DNA of 64,000 bases, taken from an uncultured Methanosarcinales archaeon (GTDB lineage: Archaea > Nanobdellota > Nanobdellia > Woesearchaeales > GW2011-AR9). Position numbers: made by a program. The stretch covers positions 472,705 through 536,704 of the forward strand of contig CAYFJV010000001.1 in NCBI GenBank assembly GCA_964343575.1, in the 5' to 3' direction. Within the stretch, counting starts at the first letter, position 1. The number at the start of each line of letters is the position of its first letter. This document shows positions 36,001 through 42,000 of the stretch, one piece after another.

Positions 36001-39000
36001 ATCTTTATTGGCGATGTGTTTGTTGGTGGTTCTGATGATCTGCATGCGCTCGAGAAAAGTGGCAAGCTTGATGAGATGTTGAAATGATTAATGGTTTTGG
36101 TTCTTGTTTGGCAGTTTTGTTGGTGAAAGATGAAAGTTAGTTTCTTTGAAGAGTTTCCAGATGATAAAAGGAGTCTGGAGAAGATTAAGTTAATTTCTTT
36201 TCCTTCTAATTTATTCGTTGCTGCAAAGAGTTTGGATGAATTTTTGAAGTATAAAAAGAGAATTGAAGGTTATGGAAATAAATGGATTGGTGAGATTGTC
36301 TATTGGCCAATTTTGAGTCGAGAAGAGGGGTATTGGTTCAGTCCTTTTGCGAGAAGAAGTGGGGTTGAGAGGATCTTTTCTGAGTTGCGTAGTGGGAAAG
36401 GGACAAAAGTTCCTGTTATGTTAGATTTAGAGTTTCCCATTACCCGTAATCCCTTGTTGTTGTTTACGCAATTCTTTCATTTCTTTGGTAATAAGAGGAG
36501 AATTAGAAGATTCCTAAAAGAGAGGGTTGCCTCAGGGGTTGGGACTTATACTGTCGAGTATCCTTTTTCTAGTTGGTTGATGAGAAGTTTGTTTACTTTT
36601 TTGGGCGCAAGTTATTCTGTTTCAGGCCTATATCGTATGAAAATGTATTACCATTCTTTGCATCCTTTTAGTGAAACTTTGTTTCGCAGAAGACTTTCTT
36701 CCTTGGTTGGAAAATTTGGCGAGCGTTTTGTTCCTGGGCTTGGTTGCACTGCAGTTGGTATTCATGGCAATGAGCCTTTGCTGAGCACTGCCGAGTTTGG
36801 GAGAGATCTGCGGATCTGTTCTGAGGAAAAGGTTGGTGAGGTTGTGGTGTTTCGCTTGGGTGGATTAACTAAGGAACAGGTTAAAGTGATTAAAGAAGTA
36901 AGAAAAAATGGAAGTAACTAGAGTCTTAACTTTGCTTTGATTTCGTCATTGAGTCTTCCATGAGGAGGGACTCTTGTTGGCAGCCAAAGAGTACAAGCCG
37001 AAGGTCCAGGACTTACAAGATCTAATACTCTTTCCCTTGCAGCGTTATCAACAGAGTATCCTGCAGCAAGACCTGCAGCGTGAAGCGTATGTTCTCTACT
37101 TCTAGTCACTGTCCATGTTGAATAGACAAACTTAAGGATATCAAGAGCAGCAGCTTGAGTTTTATCATTTTCATCATAGACACCGTCAAAGTCTAACCAT
37201 CTTGCCCTTCCCCCTTGAACATTGAGGTTTTTTACGTGTGCATCGCCGATGACAGAACCTAAAGTATGAATCTCTTCTAATGATGCGAAACCATGAGTAA
37301 GGGCATTGTGTAGATCCCCTTTATCACTTAACTCTCTGAAGTTTCTTCCGACAATATGTTCTCGAAGAAGAACATGTCTCTTATCATCGTAAGCAAGAAG
37401 AGTTGGAGCCACATCATAACCAGCTAATTCTTCTAAAACTCGTGCTTCTCTAGCAAGGGCTTCTCCTGGTTTTGCCCACTCTCTTGTTCCGCCAAAAAAG
37501 AACCTGTCTTGAGCAAGATACCAAGCCTGAATCGCGGGGTTGAGTTGTCTTTCCATCTTGACAACTCCTTGCAGGTTCTCTTCTCTTCCAATTTCAATGG
37601 GAAAGACAATGTGAGTTGCACGATAATTTGGCGCATCACGGAACTGTTCTGGGTGTTCAAGAAACTTAGAGTAATCCATGACTTGGCCTTGAATCACTCC
37701 TTTAAGAGTTTTATCATTTTTTTGTGCACAATCCAAAGATTTATTTAGTGTCTGGTCTTCTCTTTTAGAGGGATTTTGGTGAGAGAAGAAAGAAAAGAAT
37801 ACCGTCAGATAAACAAATGGCAAGTGCTTGCTGTGGTTTCTATGCACCTTGTTCTTCTTGCACTCTTTTGGGTGGAAACAAAACCACTTGATTGGGTTGT
37901 GTTTGCTGTTCTTTATTTTCGGGTATTTTTTATCACCGCAGGTTATCATCGCTACTTTGCGCACCGTGCGTTTAAGACCAGCCGCTGGTTCCAATTTATT
38001 CTGGCACTCGGTGCGACATCAAGTGCGCAACGTGGCGTGCTTTGGTGGGCAGGACATCATCGCCACCACCATCGCTTTTCTGATCAAGAAGAAGATGTAC
38101 ACTCGCCAATCAAAGGTTTTATTTGGAGCCATGTTGGTTGGACCACAGATGCTCGTTTTACTGCAACACGTTATGACTACGTTAAAGATTTTATGAAGTT
38201 CCCCGAACTTGTCTGGCTGAATAAACACCCTTATGTTGTTTGGGGAAGTCTTGCTCTTCTTACTTATTTGATTGGGGGTTTGAGCACTTTGCTTGTTGGT
38301 TTTGTCCTATCAACAGTAGTTATTAGCCATGTAACTTTTTGCATTAATTCTCTTGCCCATGTTTTTGGTAAGCGGCGTTATGCTACAAGCGATACCAGTA
38401 AAAACAACTTTCTGCTTGGCCTGTTTGGCTTTGGCGAGGGTTGGCACAATAACCATCACCACTATCAATCTTCTGCACGTAACGGTTTTTTGTGGTGGGA
38501 GGTTGATTTTTCTTATTACATTTTGAGGGTGCTCTCTTGGTTTGGCCTGGTGTGGGATTTGCGTGAGGTTCCACAAAGAGTTCTGGAGAGAAATTTGTTG
38601 GGCGTTGGTGCAGTTGATGAAGGAGAGCTTGTTGCTGCGCAAAAAAGGCAAGAATATTTAGGGAGAAGAAGTCCCTTGTGGAGCATTGGGGCTTATGCTG
38701 CGCACGCACTTGTCTTCTTGGGCAGCATTACTATGCTGGTAGTTAGTGTTGTTTTGGGAGCTTTACACAGTCCTGCCCCGGTGATTGTTGGGGCAAGTTT
38801 GTTTGGCTCTTTTTTGTTATTGTATTTTGCGGTAAAGATTTTGTTGTATTATTTCCCTCTGAAAAATTTGGAAGGGTGGGGAAAGAAGATGAAATTGTTT
38901 TGGAAAGGTCTTGGACACTTTAATGCAGTGAGTCTTTTTCTTTTAGTTGCTGCTGCCTACACACCAATTGTGCTTGCCTTGCCATCACTTGCTTGGGGAT

Positions 39001-42000
39001 GGAGCTTGTTTGGCCTGCTTTGGGGACTTGCTGCCTTTGCTTTGTTGTATCGGGTGCTTGCGCGCAGATTTGGAGTTGTGTTTTATGGAATTGCTGGAGT
39101 GCTGCTTTTGACTGCGCTTGTTTTGAGTATGGTTCAAGTTAGAATAGTTTTTAGTAGCTCAGCACTTGCTCTTTTGTTTGTGGGCGTGTTTTGCTTTGCT
39201 TTATATTATTACATTCGTCCTGCGCTTCCAGTTTATAGAGTTCAAGGGCTGGGGCATTTGGTCTTGCTTTTAGGGAGTTTAAGTCACTTTCTCTTTTTGG
39301 CAGGTTACGTGTTGGTGTAGGAAAAATAAGATGAAAAATTAAAAGAAAGAGAAGAGGAAGAAAAAAAATTAGTACACCCTAACTGCTCTTTCTACTTGAG
39401 GTTTTGTCCAACCCTGAGCTAATTTCCCATGCCTTCTGTCTACTTGACGATCATCTCCCAAGGTAATAGAAGATCTCAGAAGTTCATCAAGATCAACCGC
39501 ATCCCGAAGAACTTGTCTTGGATTAATTGGTTGATCTTCTCCTGGCCAACAAGCAACAATAAGATGCGTCTGATAGTTAGGTAAGGGATTTCCTTTGATT
39601 GCACCAGACCATCTTTGGTATCCTCTTGGAACAGGAAGAAACATAGAAGTTTCTTCTTCTCCCCAAGTCCTTGTCACACGCCCATTAGCATCGTTTATAG
39701 AGTATCGTGGAGTGACTATATCTCTAGCAGAATCTCCTGGTTTAACCATCGAAGCAGAAACAACTGGAGAAGCATAAATCTGCTCTCTTCCCCTTACTAT
39801 GTCGCTAGGCTTTTCTCTTTCAACCCACAAAGCAGTTCTAAGACTAACAGAAGGATAGATAAGATCACTTAGAGCCTCTCTCATCACTGCAGCTACGGGA
39901 ACGGCTTCTCGTCCTTTTGGATGTAGTACATAACCACGAACTTCAATGCCCTCTTGCTCCGCTGCTTCATAAACTGCATTCGTCCACTGACTTAATCTTT
40001 CCTGTTTTTTTACCATCTTGTAGCTCCCAATTTCTTTTTATTTATCTTGTTTTTTTGAAATTTTTACTTAATTTTGAAAAATGAGTCCATTGTTCTCATT
40101 TATTGGTTGTCTAGAAAGAACTTTTCTTTATAAATTTTTCCAAACTTTTGTCACTTTTTAGTGGTGTTTCTTGAAAACTTGACTGAAGGAGAATAAATTG
40201 GTGCTAAGAAAGAAAAATTGGGGGTTTTAAAAGGAAGAGAAACTGACTAAAATTAACCAAACACACGTTTCAAAAAGCTTTTACTTGGTTTTTCTTCCTT
40301 AAGCTTCTCAAGTAATTCTTTTTGCTTCTTTGTGGTTTTCTTTGGTACTTGAATTCTTACTTTTACCATTTGATCTCCTTTACTGCTCGCTCTTAGTTTT
40401 GGAAGACCTTGGCCACGCATTCTAAAAATGGTCTCAGAATCTGTTCCTTTAGGAATCTTTAACTTTGCTTTACCATGAATGGTTGGTACTTCAATGCTAT
40501 CACCAAGCACCGCTTGCGTAAAAGAGATTGGAACGGTGATGTGTAGATCAGCTTCATTTCTTGTGAAATGTTCATGCTCTCTGACATGTACTTCTACAAA
40601 AAGATCACCATATGGTCCACCGTCTGGTCCTGCTGCTCCTTCTCCACTAAGACGCAGGCGCATCCCAGATTCTACTCCCGCAGGAATAGCAACTTCAATT
40701 GTTTTTTTCTTGCGCTCTAAACCTTCCCCATGACAGGTTTTACAAGAAGTGTTGGCAACTTCACCCTTAGCATGACAATAAGGACAAGGTCCTGTTTGCT
40801 GAAAGATTCCAAAAGGAGTGCGCTGTGTTCGTTTCACATAACCGCTTCCTGAACAATGACTGCAAGATTGGAAATCTTTTCCACCTTTTCCTTTACAATC
40901 ACCACAGTGTTCAAGCTTGTTTACTTTAATCTCTTTTTTTACGCCGTTAGCAACTTCTTCTAAAGTAAGATCAACTTCGCTGAGAAGATTTGCTCCTCTG
41001 CGTAGACGAGCTCCTCGTCGTGATCTTCCGCCACCGCCAAAAAGTTGGTCAAAAATATCTTCTCCACCACCACCGAAATTGCCAAAGTTAAACTGCGACA
41101 TAATATCTGAAAAATCAAATCCTTGAAAACCAGCTCCTCCTGCGCCACCACTAAAGGCTGCGCTACCAAATTGATCATATTGGGCACGCTTTTTTTCATC
41201 TCCCAGGACGGATGCTGCTTCGTTGATCTCTTTGAACTTTTCTTCAAAGTCTTTTTTCTTCTCTTCTGGTGCTCGGTCTGGATGATATTTCATCACCAGT
41301 TTCTTGTAAGCTTTTTTGATCTGCTCTTTAGTTGCGCTTTTTTCTACGCCAAGCGTTTTATAGTAATCTTTTGATTTTGCCATTGCTTTGCTGCACCTTT
41401 CTTCTTGTTCTTAGGCTTCCTTTTCTGCTTGTTCTACTCTCTCTTTTAATTCTTCTGGAGCAAAGTCCAATCGATCAAAAACTCTTTTTTCATCCTTGGT
41501 GATCACTTCTCTGTAAAGTTCTCCTTTTTCATCATTTTTCCAATACCGTTCTTTAAGGTAAGCTAAACGTTCTTCAAGCAAGTGAACCTCACAACCCGTT
41601 ATTCTCCAATCAGCTAAGTGCACTACGACTTGATTCCAATCTTTTTCTTGTTGTCTTGGGTCACTCAAATGTTTCAATGAGGCTCCAAATTCTGGAAACT
41701 GATCTTTAAACTCTTCATAGAAAATTTCACTTTCCCACTTGTTAGGGTATTTTCCTCTTAGTTTTTTGTGCATGTCAAGTTCTTCTTGAGTGAAAGGTTC
41801 TGGGTGATACTGTTTGCTTGGAATAAGTTCTGGCAAAGTTACTGCCTTGAAAAGATCGTGCACCAATGCTAAAGATTGTACCAGCTCTGGATCGATATCC
41901 ATTCCCTTTTTCTTGAGCTCTTTAGCAAGGAATGTTGCAACTTGCGCTACCTTAACACAGTGTGCTTTAATATTAGAAGGAACTTCATACTCTTCAAACC

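Follow-up and report, generated by a model that had tools for sequence, protein, structure and literature searches.

Fusion of a predicted membrane desaturase with a degenerate PAQR/TrhA domain in an archaeon with bacterial-type lipoprotein enzymes

Introduction

Two families of membrane proteins that are linked to lipid unsaturation in other organisms meet in the protein described here. The first is represented by SCD1, the mammalian stearoyl-CoA desaturase (PDB codes 4YMK, 6WF2, and 4ZYO), where four His/Asn motifs with nine histidines are set in a four-helix membrane core. The second is the PAQR/TrhA/CREST superfamily, defined by a set of motifs that includes SxxxH at the end of helix 2 (PMC3146951). 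C. elegans PAQR-2 promotes expression of delta-9 desaturases, and both PAQR-2 and human AdipoR1-2 act upstream of these enzymes in membrane homeostasis (PMC7428288), as zinc hydrolases that signal via transcription factors. The bacterial members, TrhA/YqfA (HlyIII, PF03006, NF011669), form PAQR class III; E. coli trhA belongs to the FabR regulon and is thereby co-regulated with unsaturated fatty acid synthesis, and neither in E. coli nor in B. subtilis was fluidity under the control of TrhA (PMC9017321). The TrhA/HlyIII family has been stated to be absent from archaea (PMC9017321, PMC3146951); we find it in 13 of 201 genomes of the archaeal phylum studied here.

In the window, by which we mean the whole stretch of 64,000 nucleotides that was analysed, one gene encodes a desaturase and a PAQR domain in a single polypeptide. 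This fusion is the most unusual feature of the locus, and was overlooked in the initial annotation.

Architecture and genomic context

The gene is real, as first annotated: a single unbroken reading frame for 513 residues, with an alternative TTG start one codon upstream, at 37776. Its features are as follows.

37779..39320, + strand: gene for a two-domain membrane protein of 513 aa (desaturase and degenerate PAQR/TrhA domain), an open frame without a stop
37803..38588, + strand: membrane di-iron desaturase domain of SCD1/Ole1/DesC type, approximately residues 9-270 (Pfam PF00487, E 2e-18; mouse SCD1, E 1.3e-28; model compared with SCD1)
37947..37964, + strand: His box 1, H57-x4-H62, aligned with the SCD1 box, both His invariant in all six fusions
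38058..38072, + strand: His box 2, H94-x2-H97-H98, from the SCD1 alignment, invariant in all six fusions
38346..38360, + strand: N190-x3-H194 motif, from the SCD1 alignment, invariant in all six fusions
38445..38459, + strand: His box 3, H223-x2-H226-H227, from the SCD1 alignment, invariant in all six fusions
38589..38672, + strand: linker, approximately residues 271-298, with invariant D280-x-G282 (alignment) and a predicted helix at 281-293 (model, of low confidence here)
38673..39317, + strand: PAQR/TrhA (HlyIII) domain with seven hydrophobic segments and a decayed hydrolase site (profiles, hhalign, motif table, hydropathy)

The same architecture occurs in five more full-length proteins of 493-505 aa, which gives six fusions in all, this one included. 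An artefact of assembly or binning, by which a chimeric join or a gene of bacterial source would have ended up in an archaeal bin, is very improbable. The G+C content (0.438, contig 0.396) and GC3 (0.387, against 0.324 ± 0.049) of the gene lie above the surrounding values, and neither of the two same-genus genomes, nor any other genome searched, carries the fusion. Against an artefact, the gene lies inside a 665-kb contig, its codon use stands at the 42nd percentile among 738 genes, and the same join is found in five independent proteins. Going by names assigned from the sequences, the neighbourhood also includes what we take to be an archaeal-type rpl1-rpl10-rpl12 cluster approximately 2 kb away, and dnaJ-dnaK-grpE at 1 kb.

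The desaturase domain

The FA_desaturase match first reported for residues 39-230 is confirmed at E 2e-18, with a score of 67.6 bits where the family cut-off lies at 29.7. The complete di-iron ligand set of nine histidines and one asparagine is invariant in all six fusions. SCD1 ranks first in both sequence and fold searches (model against SCD1: Z 19.4, rmsd 4.5, 261 residues aligned). The nearest relatives are bacterial desaturases with 50-60% identity, far closer than the plant ADS enzymes. The desaturase halves of the six fusions are 48-70% identical to one another and nest among bacterial enzymes in the tree, apart from other archaeal desaturases; a single origin is not rejected (the tree constrained to it is 14.6 lnL better, p-AU 0.72). 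Desaturases had been noted earlier in related genomes, and these do exist, but they are of a different, unfused type of 270-400 aa on a separate branch.

Ole1, cyanobacterial DesC, and plant ADS belong to the wider delta-9 "first desaturase" group, and we take the CoA-contact residues of SCD1 to include an Arg-Asp pair before box 2. The fold and the four motifs of SCD1 are shared by the fusion protein, which differs in carrying a seven-helix PAQR domain, in lacking a cytochrome b5 domain, and in not keeping the CoA-contact pair, whose positions align with Gly-His or a Gln equivalent. It also differs in belonging to an archaeal host whose genome has no visible acyl-CoA supply. The loss of the Arg-Asp pair, together with the finding of no AMP-binding ligase in this 95% complete bin, would favour a lipid-bound substrate. 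The protein is probably an O2-dependent membrane desaturase of bacterial origin that would introduce a cis double bond, presumably at delta-9, into saturated chains already esterified in membrane lipids. The desaturase is very probably active, and its substrate is likely to be a fatty-acyl glycerolipid.

That the enzyme does not serve fluidity, but acts on another substrate or position (a sphingolipid, an ether or alkyl chain, or a chain destined for hydroxylated or cyclic lipids) or is mainly an oxygen sink, we regard as distinctly improbable. The whole protein scores 79.9 bits against the DesA equivalog NF049918, far below its 400-bit cut-off, and in relatives the fusion partner is a GT2, DUF1365, or cytochrome c domain, so that the clade appears to serve several pathways. 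Genes for defence against O2 are also numerous in the genome, which encodes another His-box enzyme as well. Arguing for the fluidity role, SCD1 is the sole match at E < 1 among solved structures, and the close relatives that bear names, which are many, are annotated, automatically, as acyl-CoA/delta-9 desaturases.

The PAQR/TrhA domain and its decayed site

The C-terminal half had been described as matching no Pfam family, which is correct even at E 10, but its status as an orphan is not: it is a TrhA/HlyIII PAQR domain. It matches NCBIfam NF011669 (TrhA) at E 3.3e-10 over profile positions 6-197 of 199, and TIGR01065 at E 6.6e-8, again along almost all of the profile. Alignment by hhalign to the intact HlyIII of the same genome gives 99.6% and E 1e-24, and hydropathy places seven hydrophobic segments within residues 311-513. 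The domain is thereby homologous to bacterial TrhA over its whole length, from which it differs in its decayed motifs, its covalent link to a desaturase, and a score of 39.9 bits, short of the 80 set for the family (the relative P0003 passes with 84.6). By fold alone, in a model of pLDDT 62, this half does not separate AdipoR1 (Z 12.7, with 192 residues aligned at rmsd 3.8) from microbial rhodopsins, which reach Z 12.6. In the Foldseek list, AdipoR entries come after SCD1, and the whole-protein model (pTM 0.48) gives a domain arrangement without confidence.

Only one of the five hydrolase-site residues, His493, survives. In the SxxxH motif, Lys353 replaces Ser and Tyr357 replaces His, the Ser being kept in none of the six fusions and the His in two; at the start of helix 3, Asn382 replaces the Asp that is kept in two; and in the HxxxH motif at the start of helix 7, where one fusion has both histidines, Gln489 replaces the first. 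All five residues are present in 22 of 23 stand-alone archaeal HlyIII proteins and 12 of 16 bacterial ones, but in 0/6 fusions, which keep 1, 3, 1, 0, 4, and 0 of them, respectively. Compared with PAQR-2 and the AdipoR proteins, members of the same superfamily, the zinc site is decayed, and the link to a desaturase is made within one chain.

The uneven loss of the motifs, combined with a PAQR half that diverges faster than the desaturase half (18-46% identity; 18-37% in helices 5-7, the worst region), is the pattern expected from drift. It is what would be seen if the desaturase acted alone and the PAQR half were a decaying passenger of an old read-through fusion, a harmless membrane anchor. 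The long branch of the fusions in the HlyIII tree and the separate, intact stand-alone HlyIII/PAQR protein of this genome also agree with such a passenger, as does the distribution of the two families. In the order-wide sample of 401 genomes, a stand-alone desaturase is present in six and a stand-alone HlyIII in 24, and no genome besides this one (G000) has both families, so that no lineage-wide coupling between desaturase and PAQR is seen.

A mere passenger is nevertheless unlikely. A 215-residue seven-helix domain has stayed in frame and at full length in 6/6 fusions while the other half diverged to 48-70% identity, 16 columns are invariant, and a change of the motif Ser to Lys or Arg is common to five of the six. 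No truncated clade member was seen among the top matches, although P0008 covers 65% of the query, and the PAQR halves form one branch in a quick tree (SH-aLRT 100). On balance, we lean slightly towards a non-catalytic but functional role for the fused domain, as an accessory that binds lipid or senses its packing.

A second, separate fusion bears on this accessory role. In P0283, an example of TrhA with N-terminal extension (NCBIfam NF047868), a PAQR domain likewise follows a His-box membrane domain, but one of a different superfamily, and here the PAQR site is intact. The His-box domain of P0283 is fatty-acid-hydroxylase-like and groups with these enzymes by ESM features (0.92-0.94), with a weak BLAST link (E 0.002). 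Worm PAQR-2, the FabR control of E. coli trhA, and P0283 are independent links between PAQR proteins and unsaturation, and speak for the proposed accessory role.

Lipid and lipoprotein enzymes elsewhere in the genome

The other lipid enzymes first listed are all present: an FA_hydroxylase (44.6 bits), a patatin (123 bits), a PLDc_2 protein with two copies of the motif, and the four proteins of the BD-FAE family, of which our lipobox screen passes all four and not three. The PLDc_2 protein, on contig C1, had been called a phospholipase D, but its best NCBIfam matches are the nucleases NucT and DrmC (E 1e-16 and 3e-12), while cardiolipin synthase ClsB reaches E 0.002, and from its sequence it is more likely a nuclease than a phospholipase. 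Ketoacyl synthase, HMG-CoA reductase, and PcrB/GGGP synthase were not found in the 95% complete bin, in line with the initial claim, nor were genes for chain synthesis. To describe the cell as being without lipid synthesis is still an overstatement, since a CarS-like cytidylyltransferase adjoins a CDP-alcohol phosphatidyltransferase. Both score best against archaeal ether-lipid models, below cut-off, which leaves room for ether lipids from an archaeal host.

The handling of fatty-acyl esters that the cell cannot make, one part of the initial proposal that ester lipids are harvested and remodelled, is supported, mostly by genes not cited there (two Lgt, LspA, Lit, and the intact PAQR protein). 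Hydrolysis and re-acylation are not: the 95% complete bin yielded neither an AMP-binding ligase nor PlsC/PlsB, PlsY, or GpsA, so that released fatty acids have no visible route back into lipid. A PaaK/F390-like ligase is present, however.

Lit moves the sn-2 acyl chain through its carbonyl, using His85 and His153; Val89, Phe149, Phe157, and Trp162 are further described residues (PMC8275575). Outside the window, contig C2 encodes two Lgt (PF01790, 215-217 bits; His103, Arg143, and Arg239 motifs in both copies) and LspA (PF01252, 107.9 bits; both catalytic Asp motifs align with S. aureus LspA), and C1 encodes a predicted Lit, with H-x2-DV and F-x2-FH-x3-F-x4-W present. These homologues match E. 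coli Lgt (5AZB), S. aureus LspA (6RYO), and B. cereus Lit (7B0O) at E 8e-31, 2e-13, and 1e-11. Unlike in the bacterial lyso-form pathway, the host is an archaeon without visible synthesis of the phosphatidylglycerol donor, and Lit is far below its equivalog cut-off (NF051877, 55.7 against 400 bits) and near that of TIGR01906 (71.7 against 74.8). In a pattern search of 29 archaeal Lgt copies, the Arg143, Arg239, and His103 motifs were found in 26, 27, and 17, and the first and second Lit motifs are present in 6/6 and 5/6 relatives. Across the lineage, Lgt, LspA, and Lit occur in 56/61, 184/201, and 49/61 genomes, and this genome encodes 22 lipobox proteins. The chemistry of Lit requires an ester acyl chain. 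Taken together with the fused desaturase, these bacterial enzymes, which would load surface proteins with ester-linked fatty acids and rearrange them there, suggest that this tiny archaeon of symbiont type lives with and tunes borrowed bacterial-type membrane lipids.

Alternatively, the fatty-acyl enzymes could act on food or on a partner membrane, with the desaturase and esterases conditioning or digesting foreign lipid, and the cell's own bilayer consisting of borrowed archaeal ether lipids. The archaeal affinity of both head-group enzymes and the prediction of all four esterases as exported lipoproteins fit this alternative, as does the established transfer of lipid from the archaeal host to N. 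equitans (PMC7414124); an ether analogue might also be the Lgt substrate. We consider it quite unlikely, because the desaturase and PAQR domains, as integral membrane proteins, should reach only their own bilayer, the genome has no detected pathway for re-use of free fatty acids, and the ester-dependent Lit is kept with both histidines in 49 of 61 relatives. In addition, AliA (DUF63), the ether-lipid counterpart, is found in 0/35 genomes with Lgt and LspA and in 4/10 without both, i.e., the two systems are mutually exclusive in the sample.

Proposed mechanism and implications

The best explanation of the whole, on which we are evenly poised, is an acyl-lipid desaturase working on borrowed ester lipids together with a non-catalytic lipid-binding or sensing PAQR module. 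Whole diacyl phospholipids would be taken from a bacterial (or eukaryotic) partner and may be fitted with head groups by the CarS-like and CDP-alcohol transferase enzymes. Lgt would place diacylglyceryl on lipoproteins, LspA would cleave them, and Lit would transfer the acyl chain at sn-2 onto the N-terminus. With electrons that come from NAD(P)H by way of a reductase and ferredoxin, the desaturase could adjust how unsaturated these lipids are, since the cell has no say in which chains they bring. Candidate electron donors, namely a [2Fe-2S] ferredoxin and an FAD/NAD reductase, are encoded in the genome, as are the O2-related proteins SOD, peroxiredoxins, and a 2OG oxygenase. The PAQR barrel, with a cavity that would face the cytoplasm like the desaturase site, may present lipid to the desaturase or gate it.

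A wider proposal, which we put forward as doubtful, is that most of the phylum (the lineages with Lgt, LspA, and Lit, and no AliA) lives in bacterial-type membranes of fatty-acyl esters, acquired intact from bacterial hosts. The present cell would tune these stolen lipids with a sensor and effector combined in a single polypeptide, in which the PAQR pseudo-enzyme gates or feeds a delta-9 desaturase. If true, the lineages with this gene content would have crossed the lipid divide, and the fusion would show in direct physical form that PAQR proteins originally served to link the sensing of lipids with their desaturation, a coupling that needs neither hydrolysis nor transcription.

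The gene and its surroundings

The fusion gene is an open frame of 513 codons that runs without a stop on the forward strand (37779–39320). It lies on a 665-kb contig between unrelated genes that are convergent or divergent, so that no lipid operon surrounds it. Judging by the sequences, we take one side to be a ribosomal-protein cluster and the other dnaJ–dnaK–grpE. The G+C content is 0.438, compared with 0.396 for the contig, codon use is unremarkable, at the 42nd percentile of 738 genes, and a promoter and terminator scan gave a result at chance level. Neighbouring features in the window are:

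26098–29847, minus strand: secreted, very acidic protein of 1249 residues, containing a long coiled coil in addition to Ig/PKD-like repeats
30786–32735, plus strand: PP2C-type phosphatase (E 4e-7) fused to a coiled coil, a single membrane helix, and an outer part rich in Cys
36918–37679, minus strand: kinase-fold protein with a weak WaaY match (E 0.015), divergent from the desaturase gene and about 100 bases away
40253–44553, minus strand: grpE–dnaK–(HD protein)–dnaJ cluster of bacterial type

A bacterial-type grpE–dnaK–dnaJ cluster is already known for DPANN archaea (PMC8204110).

The desaturase half

Residues 39–230 of the fusion protein (P0001) match the Pfam family FA_desaturase (E 2e-18), and the N-terminal half aligns with mouse (E 1e-28) and human (E 5e-26) SCD1. 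His57, His62, His94, His97, His98, Asn190, His194, His223, His226, and His227 are present, and all are invariant in the six known fusion proteins. An AlphaFold model calculated from a six-sequence input (mean pLDDT 62.5, pTM 0.48) superimposes on SCD1 with a Z-score of 19.4. P0001 is predicted to be a genuine desaturase, intact and with a domain architecture that is new.

The closest unfused relatives, among the matches listed, are bacterial and 50–60% identical. In trees, the desaturase half is placed among enzymes of Bacteroidota, Myxococcota, Acidobacteriota, and Actinomycetota, apart from the stand-alone enzymes that related archaea carry. Loci L011, L230, L244, and L245 (genome flagged unpublished, and used for no claim here), L124 (broken frame), and duplicates of loci from the source genome were left out of the trees. 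The tree for the fusion origin used 43 of the 111 collected rows. The placement points to a separate acquisition from bacteria. Other close desaturase relatives (P0128, P0148, and P0189) are joined to cytochrome c (RoxA-like), GT2, or DUF1365 domains.

The PAQR half

The initial annotation found no Pfam family in the C-terminal part, and Pfam is indeed empty there even at E 10, but NCBIfam recovers TrhA (E 3.3e-10, profile positions 6–197 of 199) and hlyIII (E 6.6e-8), both below their cut-offs. Four of the other five fusions match these models too, P0003 above the TrhA cut-off. Profile comparison with the intact stand-alone HlyIII of the same genome (P0122, C1:138455) gives 99.6% and E 1e-24, and residues 311–513 contain seven hydrophobic segments. 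An ESM Atlas search with residues 285–513 gave no usable match. In the Foldseek list for the P0001 model, AdipoR2 and AdipoR1 follow immediately after SCD1; by Z-score, AdipoR1 and microbial rhodopsins tie for the C-terminal half, and the PAQR assignment therefore rests on sequence, by which this half is predicted to be a PAQR/TrhA homologue. The eight best profile scores all belong to archaeal stand-alone HlyIII proteins, but we do not claim descent from the genome's own HlyIII, as the tree lacks resolution and the two have no common DNA.

We scored the hydrolase site of this superfamily by the CREST motifs of PMC3146951, namely SxxxH, Asp, and HxxxH. The full set is found in 22 of 23 stand-alone HlyIII proteins from archaea and 12 of 16 from bacteria. 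No fusion has it: of the five residues, the six proteins retain 1 (P0001), 3, 1, 0, 4, and 0. P0006 retains all four zinc ligands. The CREST serine is replaced by lysine or arginine in five of the six, and we infer that a basic side chain may occupy the emptied metal site. Desaturase C-termini and metal sites face the cytosol, which makes a join to a cytosolic PAQR N-terminus topologically sound. PAQR N-termini are described as cytosolic, and the PAQR cavity as opening toward the cytosol (PMC7428288).

Distribution of the fusion

Five other full-length fusions (P0003–P0006 and P0123, on contigs of up to 92 kb) were found, four in the 90% collection (43–54% identity) and one in a profile search of 1.84 billion representatives; all are single-member clusters with Logan or NCBI as source. 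Identity among the fusions is 48–70% in the desaturase halves and 18–46% in the PAQR halves, with 81 and 16 invariant columns, respectively. A quick tree places the PAQR halves together on one long branch, and one origin of the six desaturase halves is compatible with the data (p-AU 0.72).

Beyond the source genome, no fusion was found in overlapping samples of 41 relatives and 114 family, 401 order, and 401 class genomes. A word-based search with the C-terminal half alone matched just P0001 itself, and a profile search for longer proteins recovered three of the six fusions, so such searches overlook members. When GTDB genomes and JGI metagenomes were scanned by pattern, no match among the loci listed (at least 80 from each) extended past residue 346. 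Among the 401 order genomes, six have a stand-alone desaturase and 24 a stand-alone HlyIII, with no overlap. Of 201 phylum genomes, 13 gave an HlyIII match, and of four control archaea none did; the family is stated to be absent from archaea, an absence linked to ether lipids (PMC9017321, PMC3146951).

The profile search for longer proteins also returned P0283 (cluster of seven), a second, independent PAQR fusion in which an intact TrhA is joined to a His-box domain, NF047868, named "TrhA extension" in NCBIfam with no function assigned. The ESM features of this domain point to fatty-acid hydroxylases, with weak support from BLAST. The stand-alone gene of the source genome is arranged as follows:

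C1:138455–139978 (L004): intact stand-alone HlyIII/TrhA, with an FAD/NAD-binding reductase directly after it

We rejected this neighbourhood as a conserved unit, since it recurs in one of 39 other flanking loci examined. Among the matches listed, literature on PAQR proteins together with desaturases describes regulatory links and no fusion; on this thin ground, the fusion appears not to be in print.

Lipid enzymes of the genome

The FA_hydroxylase, patatin, PLDc_2, and four BD-FAE proteins listed in the initial annotation are all present, and its claim that fatty-acid synthase, the mevalonate pathway, and GGGP synthase are missing agrees with our searches, in which ketoacyl synthase, HMG-CoA reductase, and PcrB were not found in the genome. 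Two further claims found less support. The PLDc_2 protein, listed as a phospholipase D, scores best as a nuclease, and a cell that harvests and remodels lipids by hydrolysis and re-acylation is not supported by a genome with no visible route to re-esterify free fatty acid: GpsA (present in three of the other four genomes), PlsY, PlsC/PlsB (present in 15 of 41), and an AMP-binding ligase were not found in it. Patatin occurs in two and FA_hydroxylase in one of five genomes tested, and each in none of four control archaea. The sole UbiA protein belongs to the decaprenyl-phosphate phosphoribosyltransferase type. Three loci of this genome are of related interest:

C1:372389–373473 (L226): CarS-like and CDP-alcohol phosphatidyltransferase genes, adjacent, convergent, and overlapping; head-group enzymes without backbone synthesis
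C1:263440–265029 (L225): PaaK/F390-synthetase-like ligase of 529 residues, with no Pfam match
C1:240168–244426 (L224): PAP2 (DUF212) gene, divergent, beside two acidic lipobox esterases

With head-group enzymes found, and enzymes for acyl activation and transfer not found, the cell could plausibly alter head groups, and also oxidise chains in situ, with no visible re-esterification of free fatty acid. The PaaK/F390-like ligase is a possible acyl-activating enzyme overlooked by the AMP-binding model.

Another genome of the same order (G039) carries a cluster, L095 (C11:106000–120089), of what we take to be two thiolase-like, a DUF35-like, a FabG-like, and a CoA-transferase-like gene, followed by a desaturase, GpsA, and two PlsC-type acyltransferases; the genome also encodes an AMP-binding ligase. 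The gene content resembles that of a pathway for bacterial-type phosphatidic acid. In genome G033, the 29-kb contig C14 (L096) has two tandem acyltransferases (13980–15009) and Lgt (7292–8017).

Parts of this picture have already been published: PlsC/PlsY and GpsA in DPANN (PMC6431249), MEP and G3P dehydrogenase with bacterial hosts suggested (PMC8204110), Fab and cyclopropane synthase genes (PMC10936187) and absence of GGGP/DGGGP synthase (PMC8421398) in these archaea, and, for a related lineage, dependence on "archaeal or bacterial lipids" (PMC7414124). A word search of the main text of a 2026 complete-genome preprint (10.64898/2026.05.13.725050) returned none of six lipid terms.

Lipoprotein enzymes

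Genes of the source genome for lipoprotein processing, all with catalytic motifs present

C2:29791–30657: Lgt, copy 1
C2:107374–108237: Lgt, copy 2
C2:158906–159475: LspA
C1:196706–197311 (L223:12706–13311): Lit

These genes are surrounded by archaeal genes, and are predicted to make up a complete bacterial lyso-form lipoprotein pathway. A crude lipobox screen, run with no shuffle control, marks 22 of 1289 ORFs. Of 61 relatives, 56 have Lgt and 49 have Lit; LspA is encoded in 184 of 201 phylum genomes, and none of the three occurs in the four control archaea. Lgt is missing from all 10 LspA-negative genomes outside the order, and present in 13 of 13 LspA-positive ones and in all seven LspA-negative genomes of the order itself. 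Among the genomes tested, Lit was found in one of two positive and in none of three negative ones; it lies within 0.7 kb of Lgt in genome G038 and within 2.5 kb in G521. A single origin of archaeal Lgt is unsupported (poorly resolved tree, p-AU 0.036).

AliA, an ether-lipid enzyme, corresponds to DUF63 by an alignment in the supplement of Hong et al. (PMC12462473). It occurs in 4 of the 10 genomes negative for LspA and Lgt and in none of 35 others, of which 30 were shown to have Lgt and five LspA alone; these counts include kin and are not independent. Lit shifts the sn-2 acyl chain by attack on its carbonyl (PMC8275575), a reaction that an ether chain consequently cannot undergo; the Lit homologues score far below the Lit equivalog cut-off. 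Hong et al. state that archaea are without Lgt or Lsp, as repeated in PMC13631571 and PMC13251419. The tables of Hong et al. give 12–60 lipoproteins in each of seven Woesearchaeota. Among the 30 of 67 DPANN rows listed, AliA appears in none of four Woesearchaeota and in one of 25 Pacearchaeota. In the literature searched, no report of desaturases, Lgt, LspA, or Lit from DPANN archaea came up.

The main idea of the initial annotation, ester-linked acyl lipids in the cell, is retained, but by another route: the predicted Lgt, LspA, and Lit, lineage-wide and ester-specific, support it more strongly than the genes cited there.

Proposed mechanism and implications

Most likely, whole diacyl phospholipids would be received from a partner, and serve both as bilayer and as Lgt donor. 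The cell could not choose its own chains, but would introduce double bonds into them in place, using oxygen and electrons supplied via an FAD/NAD reductase (C1:139220) and a [2Fe-2S] ferredoxin (C1:199564). Both are encoded in the genome, where no small cytochrome b5 candidate was found by motif. SOD, two peroxiredoxins, and a 2OG oxygenase are also encoded, and fit with an oxygenated habitat. The PAQR half, whole but disarmed, would most likely bind or sense lipid next to the desaturase. This is the weakest step because of the uneven motif decay, the lack of co-occurrence of the two families elsewhere in the order, and the result for bacterial TrhA, which is reported not to control fluidity.

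The fusion bears on how PAQR/AdipoR proteins increase membrane unsaturation, and on bacterial TrhA, for which PMC9017321 gives no established mechanism. A natural fusion whose hydrolase site has been lost by degrees (0 to 4 of five residues kept) is a small, expressible test system, and could show whether the PAQR barrel works directly on the desaturase and whether zinc is required. For the lineage, Lgt, LspA, and Lit offer an answer to the gap left by Hong et al., i.e., many lipoproteins with no AliA/AliB. With Lit kept across the lineage and exclusive with AliA in our sample, the question of a bacterial-type membrane may be turned into a single mass-spectrometry question on lipoprotein N-termini.
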